In this document: positions 45,716-63,110 of the stretch, one piece after another | Numbering within the stretch: position 1 is the first letter of the stretch | Layout: each line of letters starts with the position of its first letter | Notes under the pieces: generated by a model | Told to the model about the DNA's origin: nothing | Database searches by the model: none | The model's input: the letters and a program-made list of their open reading frames with translations, nothing else | Made by a program: the position numbers and the translations under genes | Sequence record: PV730299.1 | Length of the DNA: 64,000 nt | Direction: 5' to 3' (one strand) | Source: a phage

Positions 45716-45746
45716 TAGTCCTGTTAACCAACGTGGGAACTACAAG

Positions 45747-47309
45747 ATGAACAAGATTGACGAAAAGATCCTGAAGTATTTGAAGGAAGGCAAAAGCCAG
45801 AGTGCAATTGCTACTCTGTTGGGCATACCCCGCTCGACTGTACAACGTGTTGCAGACACGGAACTCGGTGTCAACCCGTTATCGCTGAAATCTCTTACCA
45901 CTGAAGAGATTCAGCAGATTCAGATGAAGAGCAAGGCTGGTGAAAGCAACCGTGCCCTGGCTGAGTTCTTTGCTGTAAGCGCCAAGACGATCGCCCGTGC
46001 CCTGTTGGTCCGCATTACCGAGGAGGAAAACAAGGTAACTGTGATCTCTCCTATCAAGCCGGAAGAGCAGGAAGTATTCGAGGTCCAACCGGGCGGCACG
46101 GCCAAAGACAAAGATGGCACAGAATGGTATGTTGGGGCATATCTGCCGAACCACAACAAGTATCTGTGTCTCACTAACAACGGCAATTTCAAAGGGGCTT
46201 TCTTTGAAAAGTCTGAATTGACTCCTGTGGAAGGTGATAGTTGCGCTTTCGATGTTGAAGCTATCGGCGAGATGGCAGAAATTTCTGTGGCACTGTCAGA
46301 AGGTGCGGACAAAGTTCCGAGCAACGTTGAAATCAGCGTTGTGGTTGACGGGGAAACCTATCCTATCCGTGGATCCTTGGATGCCCGTCGCCGTGTTGGT
46401 TACTTTGATGGCATCCTCGGTCGCACCCTGCGTCTGGCTCTGTCTTCTGTAGAATTCGCCGTCGCTGTCAAAGACGTTGAAGAAGTGGCTGATGATAAGA
46501 AGACCAAGCAGGACTTCGGCGCGAAAGACCTGGACGTGTTCCTGAACGAACACCAGATCCTGATTCTTCCTGACAGCGTTGTTATCGCGATTGACGGCAA
46601 GCCGGAAACGATCACCACTTCACACCCGGCCTATGACCGCATCGTACAGGCGATCAAAGACAAAGACGTGAAGCTGGCATACTCGCTGATGCGCCCCCGT
46701 GAAGCCATCGCGAAGTACGCTGCTGGTCTGGTAGACGTGTCTGACAACCGTGTCCGCTGGTCTGGCCATGACATCACAGGCACATCCATCGCCAAGCGTG
46801 TACTGGCGCTGATGCTGAAGGGTGACTTCCACAACCTGGACCGCATGGCGAAGTTTATGGACAAAATGTTCCAGAACCCGTCAGCTTCTCTGGTTCAGTC
46901 TGGGCGCATCTATGAGTTCATGGCGTACTCTGACATCGAAATTGACGACGATGGTGACATCATCCTCTACAAATCGGTGCGCGGCAACTACATGGACAAG
47001 CACAGCAACACGATCAGCAACGCCCCAGGCACTATCGTGCGGATGGCTCGCTCATTCGTGAACGACAACAACTCTGAACTGTGTTCATACGGTTTGCACG
47101 TTTGCTCCCTGGCCTACCTGAAGGAGTGTTTCGGTTCTGTTGGCCAGCGCGTCGTTCGCTGTAAGCTGAACCCGCGTGATATCGTGTCGGTCACCGATGA
47201 TTTTGGTTCAAGCAAAATCCGCTGCTGTGAATACCTGGTGTTGGATGACTACACCGCTGAGTACAACCGCCAGCACAAGTCTATTGACGTGACAGGCCTG
47301 TACAAGTAA
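45747..47309 (+). CDS. rIIB-like protein (by synteny) with two N-terminal helix-turn-helix motifs
   Basis: ORF-track start 45660 is TTG and overlaps rIIA-like gene; ATG 45747 chosen; HTH-like GKSQSAIATLLGIPRSTVQRV and SNRALAEFFAVSAKTIARAL. Confidence 0.4.
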   Translation: MNKIDEKILKYLKEGKSQSAIATLLGIPRSTVQRVADTELGVNPLSLKSLTTEEIQQIQMKSKAGESNRALAEFFAVSAKTIARALLVRITEEENKVTVISPIKPEEQEVFEVQPGGTAKDKDGTEWYVGAYLPNHNKYLCLTNNGNFKGAFFEKSELTPVEGDSCAFDVEAIGEMAEISVALSEGADKVPSNVEISVVVDGETYPIRGSLDARRRVGYFDGILGRTLRLALSSVEFAVAVKDVEEVADDKKTKQDFGAKDLDVFLNEHQILILPDSVVIAIDGKPETITTSHPAYDRIVQAIKDKDVKLAYSLMRPREAIAKYAAGLVDVSDNRVRWSGHDITGTSIAKRVLALMLKGDFHNLDRMAKFMDKMFQNPSASLVQSGRIYEFMAYSDIEIDDDGDIILYKSVRGNYMDKHSNTISNAPGTIVRMARSFVNDNNSELCSYGLHVCSLAYLKECFGSVGQRVVRCKLNPRDIVSVTDDFGSSKIRCCEYLVLDDYTAEYNRQHKSIDVTGLYK

Positions 47310-47326
47310 CCAAACCCCATCCACCA

Positions 47327-47348
47327 AGGAGGCTCCGGCCTCCTTTTC
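47327..47348 (+). terminator. rho-independent terminator after rIIB-like gene
   Basis: Stem GGAGGC/GCCTCC, loop TCCG, then TTTT. Confidence 0.7.
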
Positions 47349-47534
47349 AGTTCGAAGGCGAGACCAGGGAATACTCCCACAAGAACTTTCCTCCCCGTGA
47401 AGTTCATGAACAACAGTTCGTGAAATTGTTCTGTCGCTGTGGTGGGTGTGATTTCACGGATGATGGTTACGCGATGCACGTATACTGCTGCAATTGCTGT
47501 GGTAAATACGTAACAGTCTATAGGAGAACCGAAC

Positions 47535-47960
47535 ATGGCGAAGAAACCTGAAGTCAAGAAAGTTGAAATTAAAACCGAAGCCCCAGTCGATGACATCCAG
47601 GCGAAGGAGGAAGGTGTGTTGCCTACCTACCTACAACGCGCCATCGATAACATCCCTCCAGGGGGAGACGGAGGCGTCGTCTACGCTGGCGGGTACGGTT
47701 GGGTGTGCGAATACCAAGACGGCACGAAGGAACTCCTCCAGGAGCTTCCAGGGCTGGCTGCGACCCTCAAGCGTTATGGTCGCGACAAGTTCGGCAAGCC
47801 GTTTGAAACCGGGGCTGTGATTGAAACTAACATCACAGTCGAGACTCTGAACCTGCTGGGTGAAGATGATCTCAAGTTGTTGGCTGCGCCGCTGGGTATC
47901 ACAGAAGAAGATCGCATTCAGCTGATTGCGAAGCTGATCGAAAAATTGCAGATTAAATAA
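47535..47960 (+). CDS. hypothetical protein, 141 aa
   Basis: TAGGAGA RBS. Confidence 0.55.
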   Translation: MAKKPEVKKVEIKTEAPVDDIQAKEEGVLPTYLQRAIDNIPPGGDGGVVYAGGYGWVCEYQDGTKELLQELPGLAATLKRYGRDKFGKPFETGAVIETNITVETLNLLGEDDLKLLAAPLGITEEDRIQLIAKLIEKLQIK

Positions 47961-47990
47961 GCCGACGTACAACAGCTGAACTTATTCAAT

Positions 47991-48383
47991 ATGCCTATCG
48001 TTGACGAAAGCAACTTGATGGATTATGCACTGAGGCATTATATTGTAGATTCTGTCTCGTGGGATGAACTGCTGGTAGACATTCAGCGGATTTCGCTAAT
48101 TAATCAATCATTGAAGAGATTTGTCCCTGGTAAGAGTCCTCGGTTGATTCTCAATCAATTGATTACTGTCTTCAATACGTTCGAAACAGAGGCCGCTTGC
48201 CGTATGCTCGTTTTGAAGGTGGATAAGCCCCAGTTGCCACGCCTCAAGGCTGCTTTGTTGACATTAGGCGTATGGCGCGATGATTTATGTTCCGGTTCAT
48301 ACGAACCAGATAATGAGCTGATGATGGCTCTGAACAACGATTTGGATGAGTGGAGGAAACCATGCCAACGATCACTGTATTAG
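47991..48383 (+). CDS. hypothetical protein, 130 aa
   Basis: ORF track. Confidence 0.5.
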   Translation: MPIVDESNLMDYALRHYIVDSVSWDELLVDIQRISLINQSLKRFVPGKSPRLILNQLITVFNTFETEAACRMLVLKVDKPQLPRLKAALLTLGVWRDDLCSGSYEPDNELMMALNNDLDEWRKPCQRSLY

Positions 48384-49171
48384 TAGCACCGGAAGTTGTT
48401 CGCAACAAACCGGAAACTGAGCGTCTTCACACTGTAACAGGTACTGCTCGGGGTTGGGAAAAGACCAGTCTTAACCAAGACCCAGACGAGATCCTGACTG
48501 AGTGTAAAGGTCTGGATGCACTGCTGACCAAGAGCAATTTGCAGGCCGATGGCGTCACCAAAGTGGATCCAACCAAGCCCGTTGGCTTCCAGCTGTCTTA
48601 TGAAATCCACGACCCAAGCGCTGTGCTGACCACTGGCCTGACCATCACCCCTGAAACTGCTAATGGTGAAGTCGGTCAGGTTGTTGAACTGAAGGCGGTC
48701 GTCGCTCCGGAGAACGCGACCTACCAGGGTGTCAACTGGTACTCTGGCGATCTGACCAAAGCTGTGCACATCGGTGGTGGTAAATTCAAGCTGCTGGCGC
48801 CGGGTTCAGTGACTGTTTACGGTGTAACCATCGAAGGTGACCACACTGACTCTACCGTCATCACAGTGGCTGGCGCTCTGTCTCTGTCTACCGATCTGGC
48901 TGCTTCTCAGGATGTAACAACAGGTGAATCCGCAACCTTCACCATCGCTGCTACAGGCGGCACTACCCCATACACACATACTTGGTACTTCTCTGATGTC
49001 CCTGGTGGTGAAGGTGAGGTGATCGATGCTGGCACTAACCCCACTGCTGCAACTGCGAGCCTGGTTATCACTACAGTTGCTGCCGAAAACGAGGGTGAGT
49101 ACTGGTGTGTTGTTGAAGACGCTGACGGCCACTCTGTGACCTCTACTCGTTGCGAAATGGCTGCGGTCTAA
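48362..49171 (+). CDS. Ig-like domain protein (Hoc-like / Big_2-like)
   Basis: Ig-like segments GQVVELKAVVAPENATYQGVNWYSGD and ENEGEYWCVVEDADG; GGAGGA RBS. Confidence 0.55.
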   Translation: MPTITVLVAPEVVRNKPETERLHTVTGTARGWEKTSLNQDPDEILTECKGLDALLTKSNLQADGVTKVDPTKPVGFQLSYEIHDPSAVLTTGLTITPETANGEVGQVVELKAVVAPENATYQGVNWYSGDLTKAVHIGGGKFKLLAPGSVTVYGVTIEGDHTDSTVITVAGALSLSTDLAASQDVTTGESATFTIAATGGTTPYTHTWYFSDVPGGEGEVIDAGTNPTAATASLVITTVAAENEGEYWCVVEDADGHSVTSTRCEMAAV

Positions 49172-49173
49172 TC

Positions 49174-49407
49174 ATGAAAGGCTTCCAGGACTTCCTTGAA
49201 GACTCAGTAGCCCCTGGAACCACGACCGCCGATGTGGGGAAACCCGAAGGCGGTATGGTGAAAGAGCCTGTCAAGAAGCCCAAGGATCTTGAGGAAGAAC
49301 AAGAGCAGACCTCCTTCCAAAAGATCTTTGGAAACATCTTCAAAGACCTCGACCTGAAGAATGCGCGAAAGTGGAACTTCAGGACAGGCAAATATGAAGA
49401 GGAATGA
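49174..49407 (+). CDS. hypothetical protein, 77 aa
   Basis: Start set to ATG after upstream stop; terminator downstream. Confidence 0.4.
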   Translation: MKGFQDFLEDSVAPGTTTADVGKPEGGMVKEPVKKPKDLEEEQEQTSFQKIFGNIFKDLDLKNARKWNFRTGKYEEE

Positions 49408-49437
49408 GCCATGAACGCGATGATCATGGGTTAACAA

Positions 49438-49458
49438 AAGAGGCTCCGGCCTCTTTTT
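49438..49458 (+). terminator. rho-independent terminator
   Basis: Stem GAGGC/GCCTC, loop TCCG, then TTTTT. Confidence 0.7.
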
Positions 49459-49525
49459 CATTTCCAGCATTTGGTGTATAATGGACCCGTTCCCCATGAG
49501 CGGAACCTAACTGAGGATACACCAA

Positions 49526-50026
49526 ATGAAATCCATGGTCAAACGTAAAGTCGAAATCTCCCTGACTGCCCATATTGAAATGGTCCAACAACTTATCCTG
49601 GATGCGTATGAAATCCAGAAAGATCGCCAATCGAGGGGAGGTGTGACGGACCCCACCTGTCCTGGAAACATACTGTACTATCGCATGCTGCGCCAGACTG
49701 GGCACACCGCCGCGCTGAAGAAGATTCTGTCCTATGATTTCCAGACAGAGAACAACCTCAACATCATGGGTGTCTTCCATAGCGTTAGTGAACGCGATTC
49801 TTTCTTCCGCTCCCGAGCAGGCGCGGATGTATCATTACCCGATGTAGACAAGAAACAGCACACGACAACCATCTCCCATTACATGGGCACGGGCATCGAT
49901 AAAGCAAACATCATCGTGTTCTCTGATACGTTGCATGACCCCAAGCGCCTTGCATCTGCGCATGAAATGCTGCGGGAAGGCCGCAGCGCCCTCACTAATT
50001 TGACTTTAGTAGTGTTTCTGGGCTAG
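49526..50026 (+). CDS. hypothetical protein, 166 aa
   Basis: GAGGA RBS. Confidence 0.5.
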   Translation: MKSMVKRKVEISLTAHIEMVQQLILDAYEIQKDRQSRGGVTDPTCPGNILYYRMLRQTGHTAALKKILSYDFQTENNLNIMGVFHSVSERDSFFRSRAGADVSLPDVDKKQHTTTISHYMGTGIDKANIIVFSDTLHDPKRLASAHEMLREGRSALTNLTLVVFLG

Positions 50027-50035
50027 ATAGTTACA

Positions 50036-50057
50036 GGGGAGTTTCCTCCCCTATTTC
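50036..50057 (+). terminator. hairpin terminator
   Basis: Stem GGGGA/TCCCC, loop GTTTCC, then TATTTCCC. Confidence 0.5.
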
Positions 50058-50075
50058 CCTAACAGGAGGTGCGCA

Positions 50076-50273
50076 ATGTACAAGTTCAGAATTAACAGAG
50101 AACGTAATTCGTTCAAATTCGGTGTAATCGCTGGGGTGTGTTTGTTCCTGGCGCTCGAAAGCGTTATCGGCCTGCTTACAACACCACAAATGCAGGTGAC
50201 TCGTTACCTTCTTGCCATTATATTTTCTGTTGTCGGTTTACTCTGCTCCTATTTGGGGTGTGTGAAGAAATAA
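50076..50273 (+). CDS. small membrane protein, 65 aa
   Basis: AGGAGG RBS; two hydrophobic helices. Confidence 0.5.
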   Translation: MYKFRINRERNSFKFGVIAGVCLFLALESVIGLLTTPQMQVTRYLLAIIFSVVGLLCSYLGCVKK

Positions 50274-50315
50274 ACTGGCTGCACACAGCAATACTTTGAT
50301 TTGAGAAACTACATC

Positions 50316-50804
50316 ATGATGCTGTTAATGAGCGTTCCACAGAACAAGATGACCCCTGCAACAGAGGGTAAGAATCACTTCAACATCTACAGCCGGAGCC
50401 AGACGGAACTCGGGCGCTTCCTCTCGCATTTTACCCATCATCCAATGACTACCCATGAACATGGTGTGTTTAACTCCATGGAGGGGTACTGGTATTGGCT
50501 GAAGTATAGGGATGACAACCTGCGCCTGCTCGACGGTTATGAGGCCAAGCAATATGGACAGGGATTGGCGGCTTCCCGCGTCATTGTCCTGGATCCGTCT
50601 ACCGAAGAATTCAAGCGCGATATCCTATTTGCAACTAGCATGAAACTCCAGACAATGCCTGAACGTCTGAAGATCAGATTGGCTTACAGTCGCCTACCCC
50701 TGATCCATGCATATGTTCAGAACGGGAAATACAGTTTTCAAAACTCTATGGACTATATCATTGCCCACATTAATCGTCTCCGCATACAAGGAACTTTGAA
50801 ATGA
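50316..50804 (+). CDS. NADAR (YbiA/DUF1768-like) domain protein, candidate ADP-ribosyl hydrolase
   Basis: HFNIYSRS ... LSHF ... FNSMEGYWYWLKY pattern resembles the NADAR signature; ORF-track start is TTG, start uncertain. Confidence 0.5.
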   Translation: MMLLMSVPQNKMTPATEGKNHFNIYSRSQTELGRFLSHFTHHPMTTHEHGVFNSMEGYWYWLKYRDDNLRLLDGYEAKQYGQGLAASRVIVLDPSTEEFKRDILFATSMKLQTMPERLKIRLAYSRLPLIHAYVQNGKYSFQNSMDYIIAHINRLRIQGTLK

Positions 50805-51382
50805 AATTTCTACACACTATCGTCGACACTTCTTATGACTGCACTGCTCATACCCCAGACCGTTCGCCTGTGTTTGTTCTGAACAAACTAGGTGAAGAGA
50901 TCTGTGAACTGTCTGATGTGTTTCATGGCATAGTATCTTCCGAGCCGTTGAATGGCGAAGTTGCTGATGTCATTATCTCTGCTATTGACCTTCTGTACGT
51001 CATGGATTATGACGACGTCCAAATGCGCGGCTCTATGAACAAGGCCGAAATGATCGACTCTGTCATCAACCACATGGCGACAGTGAACGATATTTCTTCT
51101 AATCTGTTGGAAGAAGACTGGTTCCGTCTGATTGATCGTGATCCTCAAAAGCATCTGAATCTTATTCATCACTATCATGGCCGGATTATCCGATTGTGCA
51201 ACCAGCCTTATCGCAGTCAAGACAGATTGGATCATCTTGTCAATGACCTAATCAAGCATGTTGCGCGCATGGGGTGTGGGGAAGGGGCGATCCGTGGATC
51301 CTCTTTGATGGCCACTCGCATTAAAGTGGAGCACGCTATTGAACACAAGGTTGAAAAGTGGCGTAGCAAATTTGGTCTATAA
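50801..51382 (+). CDS. MazG-like all-alpha nucleoside triphosphate pyrophosphohydrolase
   Basis: NKLGEEICELSDV and GEVADVIISAIDLLYVM resemble EExxE / ELADV motifs; ATGA overlap. Confidence 0.5.
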   Translation: MKFLHTIVDTSYDCTAHTPDRSPVFVLNKLGEEICELSDVFHGIVSSEPLNGEVADVIISAIDLLYVMDYDDVQMRGSMNKAEMIDSVINHMATVNDISSNLLEEDWFRLIDRDPQKHLNLIHHYHGRIIRLCNQPYRSQDRLDHLVNDLIKHVARMGCGEGAIRGSSLMATRIKVEHAIEHKVEKWRSKFGL

Positions 51383-51431
51383 GCCGACCCCATACATAAT
51401 CTTGTGTGTTTACCATTGACGGGATAGGCCG

Positions 51432-53342
51432 ATGTCCAACAAAATTGATATTGAACGCAAGTACAAGAAGCTCACTCACGTTGAGCATATCCTACTCCGC
51501 CCAGAGCGTCATCTGGGCAGTATTCGTTCGTCTGTGGGGACGGTGTGGGTGTATGACCCAACTAAGGATAAAGTCATCTTCCGTGACAACTTTGAGTACT
51601 CCCCCGCGCTGATCAAACAGTTTGATGAAATTATCACCAACTGTGTTGACCACAGCAAGACCCCTGAGGGCAAATCCCTGACGGAAATCACCGTCACAGT
51701 TTCCCCGATGAACGGTCAAATCATCGTTGCTGACAACGGGGGTATCCCTGTGGTCAAGCATGGCGTCACCAACGAGTGGCTTCCTGAAATGTTGTTCGGC
51801 TCTCTATATGCGGGATCGAACTTCAACGACGAAGACGAAGAGTACAACAACCAGAAGTCCGGTGGTCAGAATGGCGAAGGGGCGTCCCTCGTCAACGTGT
51901 TCTCCAAATGGTTCCGCGTCACGACTAATGACGGCAAGAAGTCTTATACTCAGACGTTTGAAGACAACATGAGCAAGAAATCTAACCCAGTCATCAGCAA
52001 CGTGAACAGTCCTGGCACATCCATCGCCTGGATCCCTGACTATGCTCGTCTAGGCGTCAAAGGACTTGACCAGAACAACCTGCTGATGATCTATCGCCGC
52101 GCGTTTGAAGTGGCTGCGTGTAACCCGCGCCTGAAGATTGTTCTCAACGGGAAGCAAATCCGGATTGACCGCTTTGGCCACTTCGTTGATTACTTCCATG
52201 CTGGCTCGGCTGTTGACGAAACCGGGGATTGGTCTGTTGCTGTAGCCCCTTCATCCGGTACGTTCATGCACGCATCATACGTGAACTCTATTGCCACCCA
52301 CATCGGTGGTCCTCACGTTGATTATGTTGCCGACCAGATCGTGGCAGCGATTCGTCCCCAGCTGGTGAAGAAGTTCAAGACCGAACTGAAGCCAGCAATG
52401 ATCAAGAACCACATGTCCTTGTTCATCGCTGCCGACATCAACAACCCGCGCTTTGACAGCCAGACCAAGGAGCGCATGACCACTCCTGTCAGCCAGTTCG
52501 GTACGTCGTACAAGCCCAGTGATAAACTCATCCGCAAGGCGCTTGAGTTCGTTATGGCTGGTCTGAGCAAAGAACTGGCTTCCCTGCGCAATGAGCAGGA
52601 TGATGCTGAGTTTGAAAAGGCCAAGAAGGACATCAGCAAGCGGGATTATCGTGAGATTGAGAAGTATTACCCGGCGACCGCCCGTGGTGACCGCAGCGGA
52701 TGCTCCCTGTTGCTGACAGAGGGTGATAGTGCCTCCAATCCTATCCTGAACGCCCGCGACACCAAGAAGATCGGGTTGTTCCCGCTTCGTGGTAAGTTCA
52801 TCAACTGCCTGAACGCCCCGCGCTCAAAGGTGATGAACAATGAAGAGTTCAAGAACCTGTGTACGATCCATGGCGGCGCAGTGCCAGGCCAGCCCCTTGA
52901 TATCACCCGTTACCCACAGACTGTTGTGGCTACCGATGCGGACGATGACGGCATCCACATCCGTGGGTTGTTGATCACCCTGTATTGCACCTACTGGCCG
53001 GAGTACGTCCGTCAGGGCAGGCTGAAGCTCCTGCGCACCCCTTACATGCGTGTGTGGTGTGGTAAGGTGATGCATGAGTTCATGAACAACGCAGAGTATG
53101 AGGAGTTCCTGAAGACGCCTGATGCCAAGAAGATCACGAAGAAGAAATATCTGAAAGGTCTGGGTGGTAACAGCACTGAAGACTTCAAACGTATTCTAAA
53201 CAACCTGGATGCGTATACTACGACGGTCACGCTGGACGATGGTTATCAACAGTCACTGAAGAATGGCTTCGGTGATGAGGCCGCCGATTACCGCAAAACC
53301 TGGTTTAGCGATGTTTGCCTGTTTGAAACTGAGGATGAATAA
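51432..53342 (+). CDS. DNA topoisomerase II large subunit, fused T4 gp39+gp60-like
   Basis: N-terminal LTHVEHILLRPERHLGS and FDEIITNCVDHS resemble the T4 gp39 N-terminus; 636 aa matches the fused form. Confidence 0.9.
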   Translation: MSNKIDIERKYKKLTHVEHILLRPERHLGSIRSSVGTVWVYDPTKDKVIFRDNFEYSPALIKQFDEIITNCVDHSKTPEGKSLTEITVTVSPMNGQIIVADNGGIPVVKHGVTNEWLPEMLFGSLYAGSNFNDEDEEYNNQKSGGQNGEGASLVNVFSKWFRVTTNDGKKSYTQTFEDNMSKKSNPVISNVNSPGTSIAWIPDYARLGVKGLDQNNLLMIYRRAFEVAACNPRLKIVLNGKQIRIDRFGHFVDYFHAGSAVDETGDWSVAVAPSSGTFMHASYVNSIATHIGGPHVDYVADQIVAAIRPQLVKKFKTELKPAMIKNHMSLFIAADINNPRFDSQTKERMTTPVSQFGTSYKPSDKLIRKALEFVMAGLSKELASLRNEQDDAEFEKAKKDISKRDYREIEKYYPATARGDRSGCSLLLTEGDSASNPILNARDTKKIGLFPLRGKFINCLNAPRSKVMNNEEFKNLCTIHGGAVPGQPLDITRYPQTVVATDADDDGIHIRGLLITLYCTYWPEYVRQGRLKLLRTPYMRVWCGKVMHEFMNNAEYEEFLKTPDAKKITKKKYLKGLGGNSTEDFKRILNNLDAYTTTVTLDDGYQQSLKNGFGDEAADYRKTWFSDVCLFETEDE

Positions 53343-53343
53343 G

Positions 53344-54675
53344 ATGGTTGCTAAGAGCATTACTGTAACGGACTTTGTCAACACTGACCATAAGCAGTTT
53401 TCTGTGGTCAACAGCATCCGTCAAATCCCTCAGCTGATTGACAGCCTCAAGCCAAGCCAGCGCAAGATCCTTTTCGCTGCTCTTGAGTACAACAAGGAGG
53501 AGATTGTTGACCGCCTTGGTATGTTCGCCGCCGCTCGCACCAACTACAAGTCTGGTGGGGAGAATATGAGCGGCACTATCGTGAACATGGCTCAGGGGTT
53601 CCCAGGCACGAACAACATCCCGTACTTTGACCGCGATGGCCAGTTTGGTTCTATCATGGGGCGTGATGCTTCATCTGCCCGATACATATCCGTCGCTGTA
53701 TCTGACGTTATCCGTAAGATCTTCCGCAAGGAGGATGAGGGTATCTTGGAATACAACTACCTTGGTGAAGAAAGGCTGGAGCCGAAGTTCTTTCTGCCCA
53801 TCCTACCCATGTTCCTGGTGAATGGGATCAATGGTATCGGCACCGGATATTCCACCGACACCCCGTGTCATTGCGTTAAGTCCGTGCTCAGTGCCCTGAG
53901 AGCGCTTCTCCGTGGCGAAGACCCGAAAGACTTAAAACCGTACTGGAACGGCTTCAAAGGAGAGACAGGCTATACTGAGGAAGGAAGAGCATACAGTCGC
54001 GGCATCTTCCGTCGCGTCAATGCCACGACCCTGCATATCACCGAAGTCCCAGTGGGTTGGTTCGCCAAAACCTATGAGACCAAGGTGTTGCTGCCTCTGT
54101 ACAAGGCAGGTATCCTCACCGAGTACGCCAACGACACGACGGAAGATGGCTGGGATATCACGGTTGTGTTTAAGCGCGGCGAACTCTCTAAGCTGAGTGA
54201 CGAGCAGGTTGAGCAGATGTTCAAGCTGTATTCAGCCACCAAGCCTGTTTGGACGGCATGGGATGAAGACGGTGTTATTCATCGTTATTCTGGTTGGCGG
54301 GACATGTTGCTGCCGTTCTTCAATTATCGCCTGTCACGGTACGAAGACCGTCGCCAGTATCTGTTGAAGGACATGGCAGACAGGATCCGCAAGCTGGGTG
54401 ACCGGGCGGTGTTCATTGAATGGGCGACGCGTGTTGATCTCCGCCAAAAGATTGACGTGCTGAAGTCTCTGTTCATGCAGGATTACCCGGACTTTGGTGG
54501 TGATCTTGACGAGTTGTTCAAGATGCCTCTGTCGTCTATTACTCTGGACGCCCGTGAGCGCCTACTGAAGCAGATTGAGAACCTTGAAGCACAGCACAAG
54601 GAATTAAGTAAGAAAGAGGATATCGATCTTTACACTGAAGACCTTGATGACCTTGAAAAGGCTCTTGGCCTATAA
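53344..54675 (+). CDS. DNA topoisomerase II medium subunit, T4 gp52-like
   Basis: LKPSQRKILFAA, DGQFGS ... SSARYISV and FFLPILPMFLVNGINGIGTGYST align with gp52 motifs; start set to ATG 53344 after gp39-like stop. Confidence 0.9.
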   Translation: MVAKSITVTDFVNTDHKQFSVVNSIRQIPQLIDSLKPSQRKILFAALEYNKEEIVDRLGMFAAARTNYKSGGENMSGTIVNMAQGFPGTNNIPYFDRDGQFGSIMGRDASSARYISVAVSDVIRKIFRKEDEGILEYNYLGEERLEPKFFLPILPMFLVNGINGIGTGYSTDTPCHCVKSVLSALRALLRGEDPKDLKPYWNGFKGETGYTEEGRAYSRGIFRRVNATTLHITEVPVGWFAKTYETKVLLPLYKAGILTEYANDTTEDGWDITVVFKRGELSKLSDEQVEQMFKLYSATKPVWTAWDEDGVIHRYSGWRDMLLPFFNYRLSRYEDRRQYLLKDMADRIRKLGDRAVFIEWATRVDLRQKIDVLKSLFMQDYPDFGGDLDELFKMPLSSITLDARERLLKQIENLEAQHKELSKKEDIDLYTEDLDDLEKALGL

Positions 54676-54716
54676 CATCGGAGGGGTTCGCCCCTCCTCA
54701 CCTGGAGGGTTGCGCT

Positions 54717-55004
54717 ATGTTCTATCTCCGTTCTGCAGCACCTGTGGTATTCATCATTATCCTATTTGATTTCCTGGTTCCTCGCTTTATCAAAGAGGAG
54801 GTAGCGTTTGGTCTCTATGGTGAGACGGAAGACCCAGAGGTCGATGAATATTACCCAATGTGCGCCCTGAAAGATATCGAGGAAGGGGAAGATGTTTCAA
54901 TGGTCGGCACCATGCGTTCTTTCAACCTGTTCGGGATTGCACTCTTTCCGAAACTAGTTGGTGAACTGCGCCCCTACGTTCCTGAAGCCACTGTAGACGG
55001 TTGA
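54717..55004 (+). CDS. hypothetical protein, 95 aa
   Basis: GGAGGG RBS. Confidence 0.5.
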   Translation: MFYLRSAAPVVFIIILFDFLVPRFIKEEVAFGLYGETEDPEVDEYYPMCALKDIEEGEDVSMVGTMRSFNLFGIALFPKLVGELRPYVPEATVDG

Positions 55005-55039
55005 TCGTAACATAGCTTCTGAGTCCTAAACTTCTGCCT

Positions 55040-55318
55040 ATGGATGATTCCTTGTATTTTCATTGTCCTGGGTGTGGTATACTTCATCTATATCGCATTA
55101 AGGGCGAAGCCCAAGGTCCGATGTGGATGTGGAACAACAATGTTATTGAGCCTACGTTCACACCGAGCCTGCTGGTGAATGCAACCGATCCAGCATTATT
55201 TTGCCATCTGTTCCTGACCGACGGCAAAATACAATTCCTCGGCGACTGTTTCCATGATCTGAAGAACCAGACAGTGGATATGGTCGACATCTCTGAACCT
55301 GAAATTTGGATTGAATAG
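55040..55318 (+). CDS. small Cys/His-rich (zinc-binding?) protein, 92 aa
   Basis: HCPGCG near N-terminus with later FCH and CFH. Confidence 0.5.
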   Translation: MDDSLYFHCPGCGILHLYRIKGEAQGPMWMWNNNVIEPTFTPSLLVNATDPALFCHLFLTDGKIQFLGDCFHDLKNQTVDMVDISEPEIWIE

Positions 55319-55321
55319 ATT

Positions 55322-55732
55322 ATGAAATTACTGGGATATTTTCGTGAACTCCCAACGGGCACTGAAGGCAAGTTGTTCTCACAGGTGAAGGGGGATGACA
55401 TCGGTGATACGATGATTCCATTGTACACTCGTGAACTTCCTGCCGAAGGTGCCTGGGAGCGCCGTGTGGTCGCTGCCGCCAACAAATATGGTGACGTGAT
55501 CGTCGTTGCTGACCGTCACCACAGCCGATTCATGAACAGCCAGCTCAAGATCCTGAAAGAAGCAGGCGTCATTAAATCCATCCATACCCGCGAACAGGGC
55601 TTCATCGACAACCAGGGCAACTTCCTCACTCGTGAAGAGGCGTGCATCGTAGCCCGTGAAGCTGGACAGATTAATCAGGTGCGCCTGAAGACAACCCCTT
55701 TCCGAGAACTCTTTTCCGAAGACCTCTATTGA
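55322..55732 (+). CDS. hypothetical protein, 136 aa
   Basis: ORF track; hairpin downstream. Confidence 0.55.
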   Translation: MKLLGYFRELPTGTEGKLFSQVKGDDIGDTMIPLYTRELPAEGAWERRVVAAANKYGDVIVVADRHHSRFMNSQLKILKEAGVIKSIHTREQGFIDNQGNFLTREEACIVAREAGQINQVRLKTTPFRELFSEDLY

Positions 55733-55739
55733 AGAAAAA

Positions 55740-55757
55740 GGCGGTATTATTACCGCC
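55740..55757 (+). terminator. hairpin, terminator-like (weak U-tract)
   Basis: Stem GGCGGTA/TACCGCC, loop TTAT. Confidence 0.4.
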
Positions 55758-55782
55758 TCGACCCCTTGTTTGGTAACATCAA

Positions 55783-56025
55783 ATGAGCCCAGAATTTGAA
55801 AATCTGTTCGAGCGATGCTTCGAACCAGGTTCTGTGTCCGGTTACATGGACCGCCTTTGCACTGCCATTGTAATACGCCTTGCTGCCAAGGGTATCGTTG
55901 TCAACACCATTATCCGCAATGGGAACAACTTTATCATGCAGATGACTGATTATCACCGCCGCACAGGCATCATCCAGGTGTCATGTGTTGACAACAGCAT
56001 TATTGAATGGAGACAGTACGCATGA
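55783..56025 (+). CDS. hypothetical protein, 80 aa
   Basis: ORF track; ATGA-coupled to macro domain gene. Confidence 0.45.
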   Translation: MSPEFENLFERCFEPGSVSGYMDRLCTAIVIRLAAKGIVVNTIIRNGNNFIMQMTDYHRRTGIIQVSCVDNSIIEWRQYA

Positions 56026-56621
56026 CAACCTATGTAATCAATGGCGGCGATTTACTGAAAGCCGCCTGTAGTTTCAATCTGATCGACATCTTTGCCCACG
56101 GTGCCAACTGTTGGTCTACCATGGGCGCGGGCATTGCTCTGCACATCGGTAACAACTTCCCAGCCCTGCGTGAAGTCGATGCGAACGACCCTCGTGGTCC
56201 AGAGCAACGCCTGGGTGGTATGTCCTATGCATTTGACCACAGCAAGGGCGTTTGGGGCGCGAACCTCTACACTCAGTTTTATCCAGGTCCGAACGCTCGA
56301 ATGCCGTCAGTCATCAGTTCTGTTCAGACCCTGTTTGAGCAGGTGCATGAAATTGTGGAAGCAACTAAAGACGAAACTGTCTATGTCGGCCTGCCTGCTG
56401 TCGGCTGTGGCATTGGTGGCCTGAACCTCTACAGTGTAGTGCGCCATATCAATCGAATCTCTGAAAGCGTGTATGAAGAGACCCGCCGTCGTGTCGTCCC
56501 AGTCTTCTATATCAGGGAAGGAGACGGGTTCGATGATGATCTGATGGAACTTTCTCATCTGGACACAGAAAGTATCATGATTGTCGAAGATGAGCAAGAA
56601 ATCATCGACGAGGAGGCGTAA
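56022..56621 (+). CDS. macro domain protein (ADP-ribose binding / hydrolysis)
   Basis: DIFAHGANCWSTMGAGIA aligns with macro motif VNAAN-x-L-x-GGGV-x-GAI; later VGLPAVGCGIGG; start at ATG 56022 overlapping upstream stop. Confidence 0.55.
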   Translation: MTTYVINGGDLLKAACSFNLIDIFAHGANCWSTMGAGIALHIGNNFPALREVDANDPRGPEQRLGGMSYAFDHSKGVWGANLYTQFYPGPNARMPSVISSVQTLFEQVHEIVEATKDETVYVGLPAVGCGIGGLNLYSVVRHINRISESVYEETRRRVVPVFYIREGDGFDDDLMELSHLDTESIMIVEDEQEIIDEEA

Positions 56622-57254
56622 ATGTACAAGTCTAATTTCCTTGCAGTTGCCGACAGCGAAACCCTGGGTCGCTGGGATGATGCAGTCATGTTGTCCTGGG
56701 CGCACACCATCGCTGACCTGACCAAGCGTTATACTCTTCAGCAGCTGGTTGAGGAGCGCACGACGTTCATTAAGCTGAATGTCAAAGAGCAGCTCGAACT
56801 TGGTCGCGTGAAGGACGCTGGGACAGTTGAATGGTGGCTGGGGGCGGGTAAACGTAACCCGTGTGATGCGGCTCGCGCCGTCAGTCTGTACCCGACTGAG
56901 CAGGACATCTCTATCTTCCAATTGGCCGATGAAATCCGCAAGGGTTGTCATCGTCTTGGGGTAGACCCGCGCTCGGTTGACTGGTGTGACCGTAACTTGT
57001 TCGATCTGCGCAAGGCTCAGCACATCATTGAGGTGACGTGTAAGCAGGACTCCAACGAGCCTTGGGATTACCACCACACCTTCGACATCGTGAGTTGGCT
57101 GAAGGGTGTTGGACAGCAGGATCGGTATGCTGGCATCAAGGCGTGGGAACTGGAAGGTATGGTCTATCACGACCCTCGTTATGACGCTGCGCTTGACTGG
57201 CTGCGTATTCAGAAGACCATGGAAGATCTGATGGGGCTGGAGGTTGTGGGATGA
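56622..57254 (+). CDS. DEDDh-type 3'-5' exonuclease (DexA-like)
   Basis: Exo I-like AVADSET and Exo III-like YHDPRYDAALDW; GAGGAGG RBS. Confidence 0.55.
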   Translation: MYKSNFLAVADSETLGRWDDAVMLSWAHTIADLTKRYTLQQLVEERTTFIKLNVKEQLELGRVKDAGTVEWWLGAGKRNPCDAARAVSLYPTEQDISIFQLADEIRKGCHRLGVDPRSVDWCDRNLFDLRKAQHIIEVTCKQDSNEPWDYHHTFDIVSWLKGVGQQDRYAGIKAWELEGMVYHDPRYDAALDWLRIQKTMEDLMGLEVVG

Positions 57255-57553
57255 TTGTATTCACTGTCATCGGTGTGATCGTAACAGCTGGGGTGTTCGC
57301 AGCCATATTGGGCTACCTGTACTTCATGTTCCTTCATCCGTTATTTCAGGCGTTCAGTCTCACGAATTGGTGCTTGGCCTGCCTAAAGGCCGACGGCGGC
57401 GTGAACACGGCCTCTCTTCCTTACTGGCGGCTGGTGGCGCATTACTACTCGGTCGGTGGCTGGCCTGGGGAAAGGACATGGAACTCTATCGGTGAGTGGT
57501 ATGGAATAGGTCGATGGCGTATATTCCCTGATGAAGACGATCAAGCCCCGTGA
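57251..57553 (+). CDS. membrane protein, 100 aa
   Basis: ATGA overlap; hydrophobic N-terminus; terminator overlaps stop. Confidence 0.5.
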   Translation: MIVFTVIGVIVTAGVFAAILGYLYFMFLHPLFQAFSLTNWCLACLKADGGVNTASLPYWRLVAHYYSVGGWPGERTWNSIGEWYGIGRWRIFPDEDDQAP

Positions 57554-57564
57554 GGGGCTTTTCT
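57544..57564 (+). terminator. rho-independent terminator overlapping stop codon of the 57251 gene
   Basis: Stem AGCCCC/GGGGCT, loop GTGA, then TTTTC. Confidence 0.6.
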
Positions 57565-57617
57565 ATATCCGGGATAGAGTATCATTGGTTTCACCAACGA
57601 ATCCTCGGGAAACTGTT

Positions 57618-57830
57618 ATGACTACAGAAAGAAGTTACAGAAAGAACTTCAATATCGAAGGGATTGAGTTCTACCACCATTACGCCCAGGACACCCATGG
57701 CACTGTATGCAACACATATATGCTTGACGGTCACCCTGTAAGTTCCGATGAGTTCTATCGTGTTTTGCGCGAGTCTACAGAAGAATCCCTGTCTTACATT
57801 ATCAATGCCAACGGATTGATTAAACCATGA
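57618..57830 (+). CDS. hypothetical protein, about 70 aa
   Basis: ORF-track start 57531 overlaps upstream gene and terminator; internal ATG 57618 chosen. Confidence 0.4.
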   Translation: MTTERSYRKNFNIEGIEFYHHYAQDTHGTVCNTYMLDGHPVSSDEFYRVLRESTEESLSYIINANGLIKP

Positions 57831-58516
57831 TCAACGTATCAATAAACGACCGTGATTTCGTTCGCGATGTTATGACAAACAACAAAGACCCTCTTGCGTA
57901 CAACGGGGAGAAGGTTACTCTGTTCTGGTCAGGCGGCGTGGACAGCACGTACATGCTATTCTGGCTGTTGGCTCACGGGTACGAAGTTCACACGATCTAC
58001 TGCGAACTGGAGAACAACTCCTTCAAGGTGAAGCGTGAGAACTGGGCGCGCAAGAAGATCAGGGAGTGGGTGACCACCAATTCACCGAGGTTGAACACTC
58101 ATTGGCATCACAGGGAAACCCCGATCAGCAAAATGAGCATCCAGTCTGGTGGGTTCCGGCCTTGTCTGGCTCAAGCCCCTGTATGGTTAGTGAACACTCA
58201 ATTCGTGGGCGGCCATTTTGATCGAGGACTGCCAAGAACTTATGTGATGGCATACGTCAACGGAGACGACGCTCTCCACTGGATTCCAGCCTTCAACAAG
58301 ATCGTGGAGGGTTATAACATGTTGGCCAAAGACGGACATGAGATCACCGTTCTCTTCCCTCTCGCCAGCATGAAGAAGACATGGTTCTACGAAGCCCTGA
58401 AACCGATCTATGGCCTGATGACCTGGTGTGAATATCCCGTTCTGAAAAAGAACTGTGATTGCCCCGCTTGTGTCCGCCACCGTCATGAACTTTCCGTGTT
58501 TGAGGGGAAACAATGA
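57827..58516 (+). CDS. PP-loop ATP pyrophosphatase, QueC-like
   Basis: LFWSGGVDST PP-loop motif; C-terminal CDCPACVRHRH resembles QueC zinc site. Confidence 0.6.
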   Translation: MINVSINDRDFVRDVMTNNKDPLAYNGEKVTLFWSGGVDSTYMLFWLLAHGYEVHTIYCELENNSFKVKRENWARKKIREWVTTNSPRLNTHWHHRETPISKMSIQSGGFRPCLAQAPVWLVNTQFVGGHFDRGLPRTYVMAYVNGDDALHWIPAFNKIVEGYNMLAKDGHEITVLFPLASMKKTWFYEALKPIYGLMTWCEYPVLKKNCDCPACVRHRHELSVFEGKQ

Positions 58517-58854
58517 AACCGTCTGTTGTGGTGAACGACATCACGAGATTGATAAACCTTGTCAAAGATGTGTTTCCACAACAGGTGGATGTCGAGTACG
58601 TGGGGAAGAACGGGAAGTGTTACCAGGTCGCTCTGTTGTTGAAGCACGTGTACCCTCAAGCAGAGATCCATTACAGTCAGATTGAAGGTCATGTGTATAC
58701 TCTGATTGATGGGCATTACTACGACATCGAAGGTATCCACTTCAGTGTCCCACCGGATACGTGTTTGCTCGAACACAACAGAGGCCATAAACCACATCGC
58801 TGGCATAAAGGGTTTGTGAACGTACCGATTTTAGAATGGTTGAGGAGACCATAA
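58513..58854 (+). CDS. hypothetical protein, 113 aa
   Basis: ATGA overlap. Confidence 0.5.
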
Positions 58855-59414
58855 TGGCGGGAATTGTGAAGTATCTGGGAGACACCCACCTCGGACACAA
58901 GAAGGTCTTCAAGCCCCGTGGGTTCGATACCCAAGAAGCGCATGATGCTGCAGTTATCGACAGTATCTTTCAGGGGCTGAAGTCCCGAGATGTCCTTGAA
59001 CTGGCTGGGGACATCTGCTTCATCGGGGCTGAGGGGGTCATTCGCCTGATGCGCGAGGGTGCCAAGCGGAATATTGATGAGTTCAAGCGCCGCCCGGTTC
59101 CCGATGACTGGCGACCGAACTTTATCATCAGGGTGGCGCAAGGCAACCATGACAGCTTCAAGATGTTGATGAAGCTGTATCAAGAGGGATGGATTAGCTC
59201 CTTTGGTGCGATGTATGAGCGTGATACTCCGGTTGGTCGTGTGCTGACCACTCACGTTCCTTATCAATTAGACCGCTGGGCGTATAATATCCATGGTCAT
59301 CTTCACAGTGAAATGCGTGAAGAGCGCGAATACCTGAACTGTAGTTGGGAACAATTCAAGCGCCCTGTAACCCTGTCTGAGTTGTTATACACCAATCTGG
59401 GGATTGAAATATGA
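58854..59414 (+). CDS. calcineurin-like metallophosphoesterase
   Basis: GDTHLGH, GNHD and GHLH motifs; start set to ATG 58854 with GAGGAG RBS. Confidence 0.6.
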
Positions 59415-59611
59415 AAATTTATTTTTCTGGACAAAAAGTGCCTTATAAAGTGCAGAAGGTCACAATCACAGGCTACCGGAAAGGGGATCCATATCTGCGC
59501 TTCTCCTCTCCATGTATCTTGAAGCAAACTAAAACGGGTTATTATATCAGGCCGATTGTGTTGATTATTGGTGTGCTTTCCGTTTTAGCTCTGAAAGGAG
59601 TATTGTCATGA
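59411..59611 (+). CDS. small protein with C-terminal hydrophobic helix, 66 aa
   Basis: ATGA overlap. Confidence 0.4.
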
Positions 59612-59946
59612 AAAAGCCGCGTATTACAGGACACCAACTCTTGGTTCTCTACGGGATAGAGAACTTTGAGAAAGGTCATTACCGTTATGGTGAATGGTAC
59701 TTGCATCCCAAATCCTGGACCAATGACAAGGGCAACACCGTCTGGACGTTCCAGGTATGCCCGAACACTGGTGGTTTCACCTCCGTCAAAGGCGACCCAT
59801 GGGACACCCGCACAGGGGCTTCCCTGCTCGCCAAGGGGTTGATCGAACCAGCTGGCTCAATGGTTCATGACGGTTCTTACGTGAACTGGCCGAACACTGA
59901 GGTGACGTTCTATCGCCTGACCGAACTCGGTAAATCTTATCTCTGA
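59608..59946 (+). CDS. hypothetical protein, 112 aa
   Basis: ATGA overlap; terminator downstream. Confidence 0.5.
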   Translation: MKKPRITGHQLLVLYGIENFEKGHYRYGEWYLHPKSWTNDKGNTVWTFQVCPNTGGFTSVKGDPWDTRTGASLLAKGLIEPAGSMVHDGSYVNWPNTEVTFYRLTELGKSYL

Positions 59947-59969
59947 ATAAAGATTCAGCGGTTATTGAA

Positions 59970-60000
59970 GAAGGGGGAGTATATACTTCCCTTCGTTTAT
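59970..60000 (+). terminator. rho-independent terminator
   Basis: Stem GAAGGG/CCCTTC with palindromic AGTATATACT interior, then GTTTATT. Confidence 0.6.
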
Positions 60001-60015
60001 TAAGAGGAACCGGAA

Positions 60016-60330
60016 ATGACCCCATTAAAAGAAATGTATGAGCGTCTGGCTGAACTACAGGCGAAGGAAAAGCGCTTCTCAGAAGAAGAGTCTGAAATTG
60101 CCGAGCTGAACAACCTGATCGCCACTCGTGAGAAGTACCTGCAGCGCTACATTAATCACCCGCCGCGCATGGTAGACCGCGTCAGCACTATCATGGACCT
60201 GGATGAAGTTACTCCTGGCAAAGAAATCATTGTCAGGGAAGTCCACCAGATGGTCGCCATGGGTCAGATCTTTGGTCGTGCAGACCAAGACGACATGATC
60301 TTCCTCCTTGAAAAGAAACTGGTGATGTGA
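60016..60330 (+). CDS. hypothetical protein, 104 aa
   Basis: ORF track. Confidence 0.5.
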   Translation: MTPLKEMYERLAELQAKEKRFSEEESEIAELNNLIATREKYLQRYINHPPRMVDRVSTIMDLDEVTPGKEIIVREVHQMVAMGQIFGRADQDDMIFLLEKKLVM

Positions 60331-60836
60331 TGGCTATCAAACCCCGTATGTTATTTGCGCATATGCGCTCGGCTCATGCATACGCTCTGTCCAGCTATGC
60401 CCAGCGCCTGAAGGTCGGCTGTGTTATCGTTGACCCGCGTGTTGACCAGCCCCTGTCTATCGGTTGGAACGGGACTGCTCCTGGCGCTCCTAATGTCTGT
60501 GAGAAGGAAGTAGACGGTCAACTGGTATCGGTGGGTGTTATCCACGCCGAGGAGAATGCTCTGAGCAAACTCCCCCAGCACACCGAAGACTGTTGTGGTC
60601 TGGTGATGTTTGTCACTCATAGTCCATGCCCAGAGTGCACCCGTCGTATTATCGACAGTGGCAAGATCGCTAAAGTGTTCTATGACCGACCATATCGTAT
60701 CATAGACGGCATTATTGAAATGCTGGCTGCTGGGATTGAAGTATATCGCATGGTCGATCAGATTGTTGTAGTCCAGCATTCTGTGAAGAACGGCGAACTG
60801 GTATCCACCCCTGTTTTAGTGAACCCTGACAAATAA
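60330..60836 (+). CDS. cd: dCMP deaminase (cytidine/deoxycytidylate deaminase family)
   Basis: HAEENAL and SPCPECTRRI zinc-binding motifs; ATG overlaps upstream stop. Confidence 0.8.
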   Translation: MAIKPRMLFAHMRSAHAYALSSYAQRLKVGCVIVDPRVDQPLSIGWNGTAPGAPNVCEKEVDGQLVSVGVIHAEENALSKLPQHTEDCCGLVMFVTHSPCPECTRRIIDSGKIAKVFYDRPYRIIDGIIEMLAAGIEVYRMVDQIVVVQHSVKNGELVSTPVLVNPDK

Positions 60837-60846
60837 GGAATTTATC

Positions 60847-61254
60847 ATGCGTTATGTAGATCGTATGCTCGGCAAAGACGAGCACGTTATTGCCTTCACC
60901 CGCCCGACTTGGTGGAGCGGTTTTTGGATTTACGTTCTGGTTATTTTAACGTTTATCCCAACATTTGGATTCAGCTTGTTATTTCTGATACCAACAATTT
61001 TAAATGTATTGACAACTGAATTCGCTGTGACTAACAAGCGTGTCATCGTCAAACGTGGTTTCATCCGTCGTGATGCTGATGAGTTGCGCATCGGTAAGGT
61101 GGAAACAGTGAAGGTTGATCAGTCCATCACAGGCCGCATCTTGGGCTTCTCAACAATCAGCGTGATCGGTACGGGCGGCACCCGCCTGCTGGCCAAGGGT
61201 TGTGCTGGTGGTAATGCGTTCCGTCAGAAGATCTACGATCACCTAGAAGACTGA
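60847..61254 (+). CDS. membrane protein with bacterial PH-like domain
   Basis: Two hydrophobic helices then TNKRVIVKRGFIRRDADELRIGKVETV, typical of bPH membrane-flanked domains. Confidence 0.45.
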   Translation: MRYVDRMLGKDEHVIAFTRPTWWSGFWIYVLVILTFIPTFGFSLLFLIPTILNVLTTEFAVTNKRVIVKRGFIRRDADELRIGKVETVKVDQSITGRILGFSTISVIGTGGTRLLAKGCAGGNAFRQKIYDHLED

Positions 61255-61256
61255 TC

Positions 61257-61469
61257 ATGATCATTTCAGGTTACACCATCGATCTTTATTGTGAATGCTC
61301 AGATTGCAAGGCATGCAGTTGGGCTTGGGAAGAGCATCACCCCAAGTGCGGGTTCAAACAATACACTGGTGAGACTTGGGGTGAGTGTGTCAAACAGGCG
61401 CGAGCAGACGGCTGGCAAATTGGGCGCGACAGGCATACCTGTTACGCCCCTGGCCACAAGAGAAGTTAA
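61257..61469 (+). CDS. small Cys-rich protein, 70 aa
   Basis: Seven Cys and several His in 70 aa; ATGA overlap. Confidence 0.45.
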   Translation: MIISGYTIDLYCECSDCKACSWAWEEHHPKCGFKQYTGETWGECVKQARADGWQIGRDRHTCYAPGHKRS

Positions 61470-62080: not shown

Positions 62081-62089
62081 AATCTAGTC

Positions 62090-62096
62090 CTAAATA
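62090..62096 (+). promoter_or_regulatory. late-promoter-like motif CTAAATA
   Basis: 35 nt upstream of ATG 62131. Confidence 0.45.
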
Positions 62097-62112
62097 GCCA
62101 TAACACTCTATC

Positions 62113-62119
62113 TATTTAA
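62113..62119 (-). promoter_or_regulatory. late-promoter-like motif (TTAAATA variant)
   Basis: About 30 nt upstream of minus-strand ATG 62080; divergent from the promoter at 62090. Confidence 0.3.
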
Positions 62120-62130
62120 GGGCTGAGACC

Positions 62131-63099: not shown

Positions 63100-63110
63100 G
63101 AGAGGATGCC

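Follow-up and report, generated by a model that had tools for sequence, protein, structure and literature searches.

An unsplit topoisomerase II large-subunit gene next to the medium-subunit gene in a Kuttervirus genome

Is a phage gene that covers, in one frame, what T4 encodes as gp39 and gp60 a fusion of two genes, or a gene that was never split? A 64,000-nucleotide phage sequence (PV730299.1, hereafter the window) raises this question with an ORF for a topoisomerase II large subunit of 636 aa, which the original prediction had described as the fused gp39+gp60 form of a T4-like phage. Judged by its sequence, the window is a genome of the family Ackermannviridae, genus Kuttervirus (ViI-like), and not a T4-like one, so that this framing does not hold: it has 98% nucleotide identity to Escherichia phage YX22 and 98–99% to its closest records, and the large subunit is 99.8% identical at the amino acid level to the annotated CDS of its nearest relative, Enterobacter phage fGh-Ecl02, with which its coordinates agree.

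The large-subunit ORF starts with ATG, has zero internal stops across its 636 aa and is followed by the gene of the medium subunit (Table 1). At the junction, a Shine-Dalgarno-like GAGGA (53331–53335) precedes the TAA stop (53340–53342), a single spacer base and the ATG (53344–53346) of the second gene, and fGh-Ecl02, LHE287, and phiD3 are annotated with this layout too. This ATG is the real start of the medium-subunit gene, the mechanical ORF start at 53263 being an upstream in-frame extension; its stop at 54675 matches the end coordinate of the original prediction, which had correctly placed gp52 immediately downstream. Because the second gene starts one base past the stop of the first, behind GAGGA, the two are probably co-transcribed and would also be translationally coupled. 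A promoter/terminator consensus scan of positions 50200–55400 returned sites at chance level (6 versus 5.3 and 6 versus 4.3 in shuffled sequence) and neither supports nor refutes an operon. An Rfam scan of the whole window at the gathering threshold gave two tRNAs only, and no hit within 51432–54675.

Table 1. Features of the topoisomerase II locus (window coordinates).
Feature	Coordinates	Strand	Basis and remarks
Spacer (49 nt) separating the MazG-like and large-subunit genes	51383..51431	+	ORF limits; no ORF inside
Topoisomerase II large (GyrB/gp39-type) subunit gene	51432..53342	+	ORF; 636 aa, unsplit
gp39-homologous part (aa 7-481)	51450..52874	+	GHKL ATPase, transducer, first Toprim half; BLASTP against T4 gp39
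Twelve codons, aa 482-493, GAVPGQPLDITR	52875..52910	+	Position of the T4 MobA cassette; uninterrupted in the window
gp60-homologous part (aa 494-626)	52911..53309	+	Second Toprim half and TOPRIM_C; BLASTP against T4 gp60
Gene junction	53331..53346	+	Sequence read directly
Topoisomerase II medium (GyrA-N-terminal/gp52-type) subunit gene	53344..54675	+	443 aa; Pfam, PHROG, and PDB matches

The protein was compared by BLASTP with both T4 products, the gp60 query being rebuilt by joining its 46 and 114 codons over the 50-nt gap. Residues 7–481 align with aa 2–466 of T4 gp39 (31% identity, E 4e-58), which is 516 aa long, as had been stated, and residues 494–626 with aa 33–159 of gp60 (31% identity, E 2e-16). 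The protein thus spans both regions in one frame, and its C-terminal part is homologous to gp60, as predicted. The T4 gp39 tail (aa 467–516) and the gp60 N terminus (aa 1–32) have no significant BLASTP match in it. It is collinear from end to end with the unsplit gp39 of phage RB27 (605 aa), residues 7–626 aligning with aa 2–604 (E 1e-77), and at the MobA site the two differ by one alignment column. At the point equivalent to the T4 bypass there is no stop, frameshift, or gap: the DADDDG motif (nt 52935–52952), encoded by GAT GCG GAC GAT GAC GGC, continues in frame with ATC CAC ATC into IHIRGLL. The single ORF has neither the 50-nt gap of T4, with its GGA take-off codon, stop codon, and GGA landing codon, nor a split within Toprim by the MobA cassette, and it is devoid of insert-derived extensions; the expectation that a gene-60-type split or bypass element would be missing is borne out. 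In the gp39/MobA/gp60 arrangement of T4, homologous protein sequence flanks the split on both sides, whereas the window has no MobA gene, no gp39 tail or gp60 N terminus, and no stop and 50-nt gap after DxDxDG. The two loci differ in layout as well, since gene 52 does not adjoin gene 39 in the T4 record, and is not found within ~13 kb beyond it, while the genes of the window abut.

The domain content of the large subunit corresponds to a complete B-type chain. Residues 2–635 match PHROG 543, "DNA topoisomerase II large subunit" (E 4.7e-226), and the Pfam families DNA_gyraseB, Toprim, and TOPRIM_C exceed their cut-offs. HATPase_c reaches 23.3 bits, slightly below the gathering cut-off of 26.4 bits, a shortfall offset by the motifs of this domain and by its alignment in full to ATPase domains of known structure. 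The GHKL ATPase motifs are EIITNCVD (66–73, N-box), DNGGIP (101–106, G1), and GGQNGEG (144–150, G2), and a PDB search aligned this region in full with the ATPase domains of TOP2A and the T6 enzyme. The transducer (PF00204, aa 267–368, E 1.6e-17) carries its QTK loop as SQTK (343–346). The Toprim region is defined by PF01751 and PF16898, both over their cut-offs, the latter (TOPRIM_C) spanning aa 535–627, and by the motifs EGDSA (430–434), with the catalytic Glu, and DADDDG (502–507), the DxDxD metal site; PLRGK (451–455) and KGLG (575–578) are also present. These features are those of the B-type subunit (GyrB/ParE/gp39) of a type IIA topoisomerase.

The medium subunit matches PF00521 over aa 26–427 of its 443 residues (E 1.4e-65) and PHROG 551 (E 5.9e-170). 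Its residues 21–437 align with aa 24–441 of T4 gp52 (PDB 8yo3_A, 442 aa; E 1.9e-35). The putative catalytic residue is Tyr114 (nt 53683–53685), in the sequence SSARYISV with ARY at aa 112–114. No GyrA C-terminal domain (β-pinwheel) was detected by the Pfam search in the 443-aa chain. The protein is an A-type subunit of the gp52 type, with the DNA_topoisoIV cleavage core and the Arg-Tyr active site but devoid of the C-terminal domain. In the PDB search, both subunits match, over their full length, chains of T6/T4 topoisomerase II and of its eukaryotic counterpart.

We are all but certain that the two genes constitute a compact phage type IIA DNA topoisomerase cassette whose large-subunit ORF is ancestral and was never hit by MobA, a reading drawn directly from the ORFs and their motifs, from the homologies and collinear alignments, and from the occurrence of the gene across phage records; no feature of the sequence speaks against it. 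The large subunit provides the GHKL ATPase, the transducer, the Toprim domain, and the Toprim-associated C-terminal domain, and the medium subunit a winged-helix domain with the catalytic tyrosine, a tower, and a coiled-coil gate; a C-terminal domain of the gyrase type is absent from the latter. Given their homology to the T4/T6 enzyme of known structure, an A2B2 relaxing topoisomerase that lacks the β-pinwheel C-terminal domain (PMC11461880), they should form an A2B2 heterotetramer. This enzyme is predicted to break both strands of one duplex transiently and, using ATP, to pass another duplex through the gap; it would relax and decatenate DNA without supercoiling it and support phage DNA replication. 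The large-subunit gene never received the MobA homing-endonuclease/bypass cassette that divides T4 gene 39 into 39 and 60, and so requires no translational bypass.

The direction of the change is set by the origin of the T4 arrangement. The preprint by Manning & Atkins, citing Bonocora et al. 2011, describes the T4 39/60 split as a secondary insertion of MobA into a parental single ORF (bioRxiv 10.1101/2022.08.31.505936). The single large-subunit ORF is the ancestral state, and the term "fused" reverses the polarity. The distribution among phages is as follows: the gene is in one piece in at least 1865 of the 2220 phage records with a homologue, the whole T4 cassette occurs in 42 of 50,697 phage records, and the MobA site is uninterrupted in 279 of the 283 Ackermannviridae relatives.

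A literal fusion of two ancestrally separate genes has nothing in its favor beyond a naming convention inherited from T4. It is opposed by these counts, which make the one-piece gene the phage norm, by the bacterial (GyrB/ParE) and eukaryotic (Topo II) enzymes, which are also unsplit and align across the junction, and by the fact that the T4 split falls just where a mobile endonuclease cassette sits and where the termini derive from the insert; we rejected it as highly improbable. A one-piece gene could also result from MobA insertion followed by later excision ("hit and run"), for which some Aeromonas phages offer a precedent: their re-fused genes keep insert-derived C-/N-terminal extension sequence at the insertion site (bioRxiv 10.1101/2022.08.31.505936). 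The window protein is indeed 31 aa longer than RB27 gp39, but its extra residues lie at the N terminus, in alignment columns 35–43 and ~143–146, in the linker, and at the C terminus, and none at the MobA site; compared with RB27, the protein has no insertion there of the kind kept by the Aeromonas clade of Manning & Atkins. The lack of a match to gp39 aa 467–516 and gp60 aa 1–32, together with the collinearity of nearly all family relatives at this site, also speaks against re-fusion, which, with no extension-derived sequence at the MobA site, was discarded as very unlikely.

A host origin, with a DNA gyrase/topoisomerase IV (GyrB/GyrA-like) pair in place of a T4-type topoisomerase II, is suggested by the annotation of some relatives as "DNA gyrase subunit B/A family protein". 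The scores run the other way: for the large subunit, 91–108 bits with GyrB/ParE against 258–329 with phage T6/T4 and eukaryotic Topo II, and for the medium subunit, 48–52 bits with GyrA against 126–197. The medium subunit is also missing the C-terminal domain that GyrA requires for supercoiling. With no such domain and low bacterial scores, a host gyrase was dismissed as having a negligible probability.

Among enzymes of known structure, human TOP2A/TOP2B give the highest scores for both subunits (329 and 197 bits), and the alignment with eukaryotic Topo II covers the ATPase, the transducer, Toprim, and the cleavage core. The eukaryotic enzyme is, however, one chain with a long C-terminal region, whereas the window encodes separate B-type and A-type polypeptides. 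The unsplit gp39 and the gp52 of T2, T6, and RB27 (T6 structure 8ylu) have the same domain order and two-subunit architecture but only ~30% identity, and belong to Straboviridae instead of Ackermannviridae. The pairs of Kuttervirus/Ackermannviridae relatives (fGh-Ecl02, YX22, LHE287, and Salmonella phage Vi01) comprise the same genes, of 636/637 and 443 aa, with the one-base junction and with shared neighbors: the MazG-like gene upstream, a small membrane protein gene downstream, and rIIA/rIIB and DexA nearby. They are essentially identical to the window, except that an extra ORF lies between the genes or just upstream of them in some relatives only.

In some Ackermannviridae, this extra ORF is of homing-endonuclease type; the window has none at either site. 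The types found at the two sites are GIY-YIG, HNH/AP2, and PHROG-655-type, plus a 132-aa ORF with no assigned function, and in phiD3, phiDP10.3, and pSal-SNUABM-02 an HNH-type ORF immediately precedes the large-subunit gene. The insertion breakpoints were placed by DNA alignment with MAFFT, which set the medium-subunit start of the window left of the inserted ORFs, although a clear break falls at the stop codon. Across the genera of Ackermannviridae, unrelated homing endonucleases of the free-standing kind may have landed repeatedly in the one-base junction and the upstream spacer, with the window as an empty, cleavable recipient allele, a reading that we find plausible while leaning slightly against it. 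If true, it would parallel the targeting of the T4-group topoisomerase gene by MobA, though in another family and at other positions.

The observation is right, but it is ordinary and already known: a gene in one piece is the rule among phages, and the split gene of T4, with its ribosome "hop", is a rare exception. Being nearly universal, the unsplit state is a poor lineage marker, contrary to the use proposed for it; with the site uninterrupted in almost every record of the family, it discriminates nothing within Ackermannviridae. It is plesiomorphic and says only that the phage is outside the few MobA-carrying clades. For typing within Ackermannviridae, the variable character is instead the presence or absence of a flanking homing-endonuclease ORF. 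The annotation of the locus is now fixed: the large- and medium-subunit genes of a Kuttervirus topoisomerase II, in the ancestral unsplit form.

The stretch 51432-54675 corresponds exactly to the span of two adjacent genes encoding the large (GyrB/gp39-type) and medium (GyrA-N-terminal/gp52-type) subunits of a topoisomerase II, neither of which carries an internal stop in its translation. The mechanical ORF call for the medium subunit, 53263..54675, overlaps the large-subunit gene and contains, in its own frame, the ATG at 53344; the 443-aa CDS that begins at this ATG is the one annotated in the closest genomes. It aligns with T4 gp52 (442 aa; aa 21-437 to 24-441), with agreement in length and N-terminal register, which bears out the placing of gp52 directly downstream. 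The gene just upstream of the pair matches a MazG-like pyrophosphatase family, although the closest record labels it only "hypothetical".

Features of the topoisomerase locus, sequence motifs of the two subunits and further features of the window
Feature	Position	Strand	Details
Large-subunit ORF	51432..53342	+	636 aa, ATG start; ORF listing of 49000-57500
GAGGA ahead of medium-subunit ATG	53331-53335	+	direct read of sequence
Large-subunit stop TAA	53340-53342	+	direct read of sequence
Medium-subunit start ATG	53344	+	1 base past large-subunit TAA; 443 aa
GHKL ATPase motifs, large subunit	aa 66-73, 101-106, 144-150		EIITNCVD, DNGGIP, GGQNGEG
QTK loop, large subunit	aa 343-346
Toprim motifs, large subunit	aa 430-434, 451-455, 502-507		EGDSA, PLRGK, DADDDG
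KGLG, large subunit	aa 575-578
Arg-Tyr active-site motif, medium subunit	aa 113-114
MazG-like gene	50801-51382		PHROG 1247, E 1.6e-35
tRNA-Met (CAT)	26440-26516	+	ARAGORN and Rfam agree
tRNA-Ser (GCT)	26770-26858	+	ARAGORN and Rfam agree

The large subunit matches PHROG 543, "DNA topoisomerase II large subunit", over aa 2-635 (E 4.7e-226). The Pfam families DNA_gyraseB (E 1.6e-17), Toprim and TOPRIM_C all pass their cut-offs, while HATPase_c, at 23.3 bits, falls slightly under its 26.4-bit cut-off. The medium subunit matches PF00521 over aa 26-427 (E 1.4e-65) and PHROG 551 (E 5.9e-170), and the Pfam search detects no gyrase-type C-terminal domain in it. For each subunit, human TOP2A/TOP2B is a better-scoring match than the solved phage enzyme of T4/T6 (329 versus 258 bits for the large subunit, 197 versus 126 bits for the medium one), a difference probably due to rapid evolution on the T-even side.

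In the T4 comparison record, gene 39 encodes 516 aa, as the original prediction held, and is followed by mobA and then by gene 60, from which we rebuilt gp60 as 46 codons, a 50-nt gap after GAT GGA TAG, and 114 codons. The window protein aligns separately with both products and in a single frame: aa 7-481 with gp39 aa 2-466 (31% identity, E 4e-58) and the C-terminal aa 494-626 with gp60 aa 33-159 (31% identity, E 2e-16). These pairwise alignments reveal no counterpart of the gp39 tail (aa 467-516) or of gp60 aa 1-32 in the window protein. Residues 7-626 are collinear with the unsplit 605-aa gp39 of the T-even phage RB27 (E 1e-77), and this alignment crosses the T4 split site ungapped. T4 gene 60 is interrupted by its 50-nt gap just after the DxDxDG codons; at exactly this take-off point the window gene continues in frame (...GAC GGC ATC CAC ATC...). 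The claim that one protein covers the gp39 and gp60 regions, with neither a gene-60-type split nor a bypass, is thus borne out, and the test proposed to refute it, a C-terminal region not homologous to gp60, likewise turned out in its favour.

The term "fused" nevertheless reverses the polarity of the change, since Manning & Atkins, citing Bonocora et al. 2011, describe the parental gene as a single ORF (bioRxiv 10.1101/2022.08.31.505936). According to the same work, an approximately 1.1-kb MobA homing-endonuclease element with a bypass cassette was inserted independently in a few clades, lengthening ORF1 at its C-terminus and ORF2 at its N-terminus; the structural paper on the T4/T6 enzyme describes the same material as a Toprim insertion missing from the original gp39 homologues (PMC11461880). 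A gene re-fused after such an insertion is known in some Aeromonas phages, where extension-derived sequence is retained (bioRxiv 10.1101/2022.08.31.505936), and the window protein does exceed RB27 gp39 by 31 residues. These, however, sit at both termini, in the linker and in alignment columns 35-43 and ~143-146, and at the MobA site the two proteins differ by one alignment column only. With the excess residues placed away from this site, a re-fusion remnant is very unlikely, and this reading is rejected.

The T4-like framing of the phage is also incorrect: its closest relatives are Ackermannviridae, and Straboviridae homologues of the large subunit are only ~30% identical. Identity reaches 99.8% with the large subunit of Enterobacter phage fGh-Ecl02 (Ackermannviridae, Cvivirinae, Kuttervirus), and window 44000-64000 shows 98.2% identity to Escherichia phage YX22 over 95% of its length; ~5% of this segment is uncovered in the best-matching genomes. 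Its gene order, deduced from relatives, is rIIA, rIIB, the topoisomerase genes, Arn.3-like, Tk.4-like and DexA exonuclease, and several of the genes clustered here are grouped around gene 39 in T4 as well, although the window's family is not that of T4. Ackermannviridae Topo IIA already figures in published phylogenies, placed within Straboviridae sequences (Guglielmini et al. 2022, PMC9752973). With an identically organised gene pair annotated in hundreds of Ackermannviridae genomes as the closest known counterpart, the original prediction reads the sequence correctly, but the feature is ordinary and has been described before.

Its proposed use as a lineage marker is of low value. By tblastn, 2220 phage records carry a large-subunit homologue, 1865 of them with 80% or more of the protein covered at a single location, while the whole T4 segment (gp39 tail, mobA and bypass) occurs in only 42 of 50,697 records. 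A 601-nt probe over the MobA-equivalent site matched 283 records of the window's family, 279 with at least 80% coverage, and each of the 30 sampled rows is a single collinear piece. Given such counts, the unsplit state is invariant where variation would be needed.

What does vary in this family is homing-endonuclease insertion at the topoisomerase locus. A 901-nt probe across the large/medium junction matched 285 records, and 8 of 40 evenly spaced rows are split by 440-690 extra bases. Between the two genes, KE30 (Kuttervirus) carries a 233-aa GIY-YIG homing endonuclease (Pfam GIY-YIG; PHROG 314/5123), and pSal-SNUABM-02, from a different genus (Agtrevirus), carries the same element without differences over the aligned stretch. 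The same position holds a 173-aa AP2/HNH-type ORF in Dickeya phage phiDP10.3 (PHROG 953, E 1e-77), a 132-aa ORF with no assigned function in EP75 (PHROG 4049), and in bering, ISTP3 and Se-S a 440-nt insert equal in size to that of EP75. Directly upstream of the large-subunit gene, and slightly overlapping it, lies a homing-endonuclease ORF in Dickeya phages phiD3 (276 aa, PHROG 655) and phiDP10.3 and in Salmonella phage pSal-SNUABM-02. We compared the upstream slot (window 51383-51431) with locus L004 (2675-3505) and the junction (window 53340-53346) with L005 (2644-3090), L006 (2640-3341), L007 (2642-3222) and L008 (2641-3339), all of them loci of relatives. In the alignment, homology to the window breaks off at the large-subunit stop codon and restarts at the medium-subunit start, so the inserts at the junction are intergenic and split no gene. 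The window is free of both insert types: a single base separates the two genes, and the spacer upstream of the pair measures just 49 nt.

In the solved T6/T4 enzyme, which assembles as A2B2, gp39 contributes the GHKL, transducer and Toprim domains and gp52 the WHD, tower and coiled-coil; the enzyme is without a β-pinwheel CTD and relaxes DNA in an ATP-dependent manner (PMC11461880). Because the window pair shares its domains and motifs, it would be expected by homology to pass strands by the same mechanism and to take part in phage DNA replication. A promoter/terminator scan at the locus gave sites at chance level. The GAGGA-N4-TAA-G-ATG arrangement of the junction suggests translational coupling of the two subunits; if they are coupled, translation would help to equalize the output of both.
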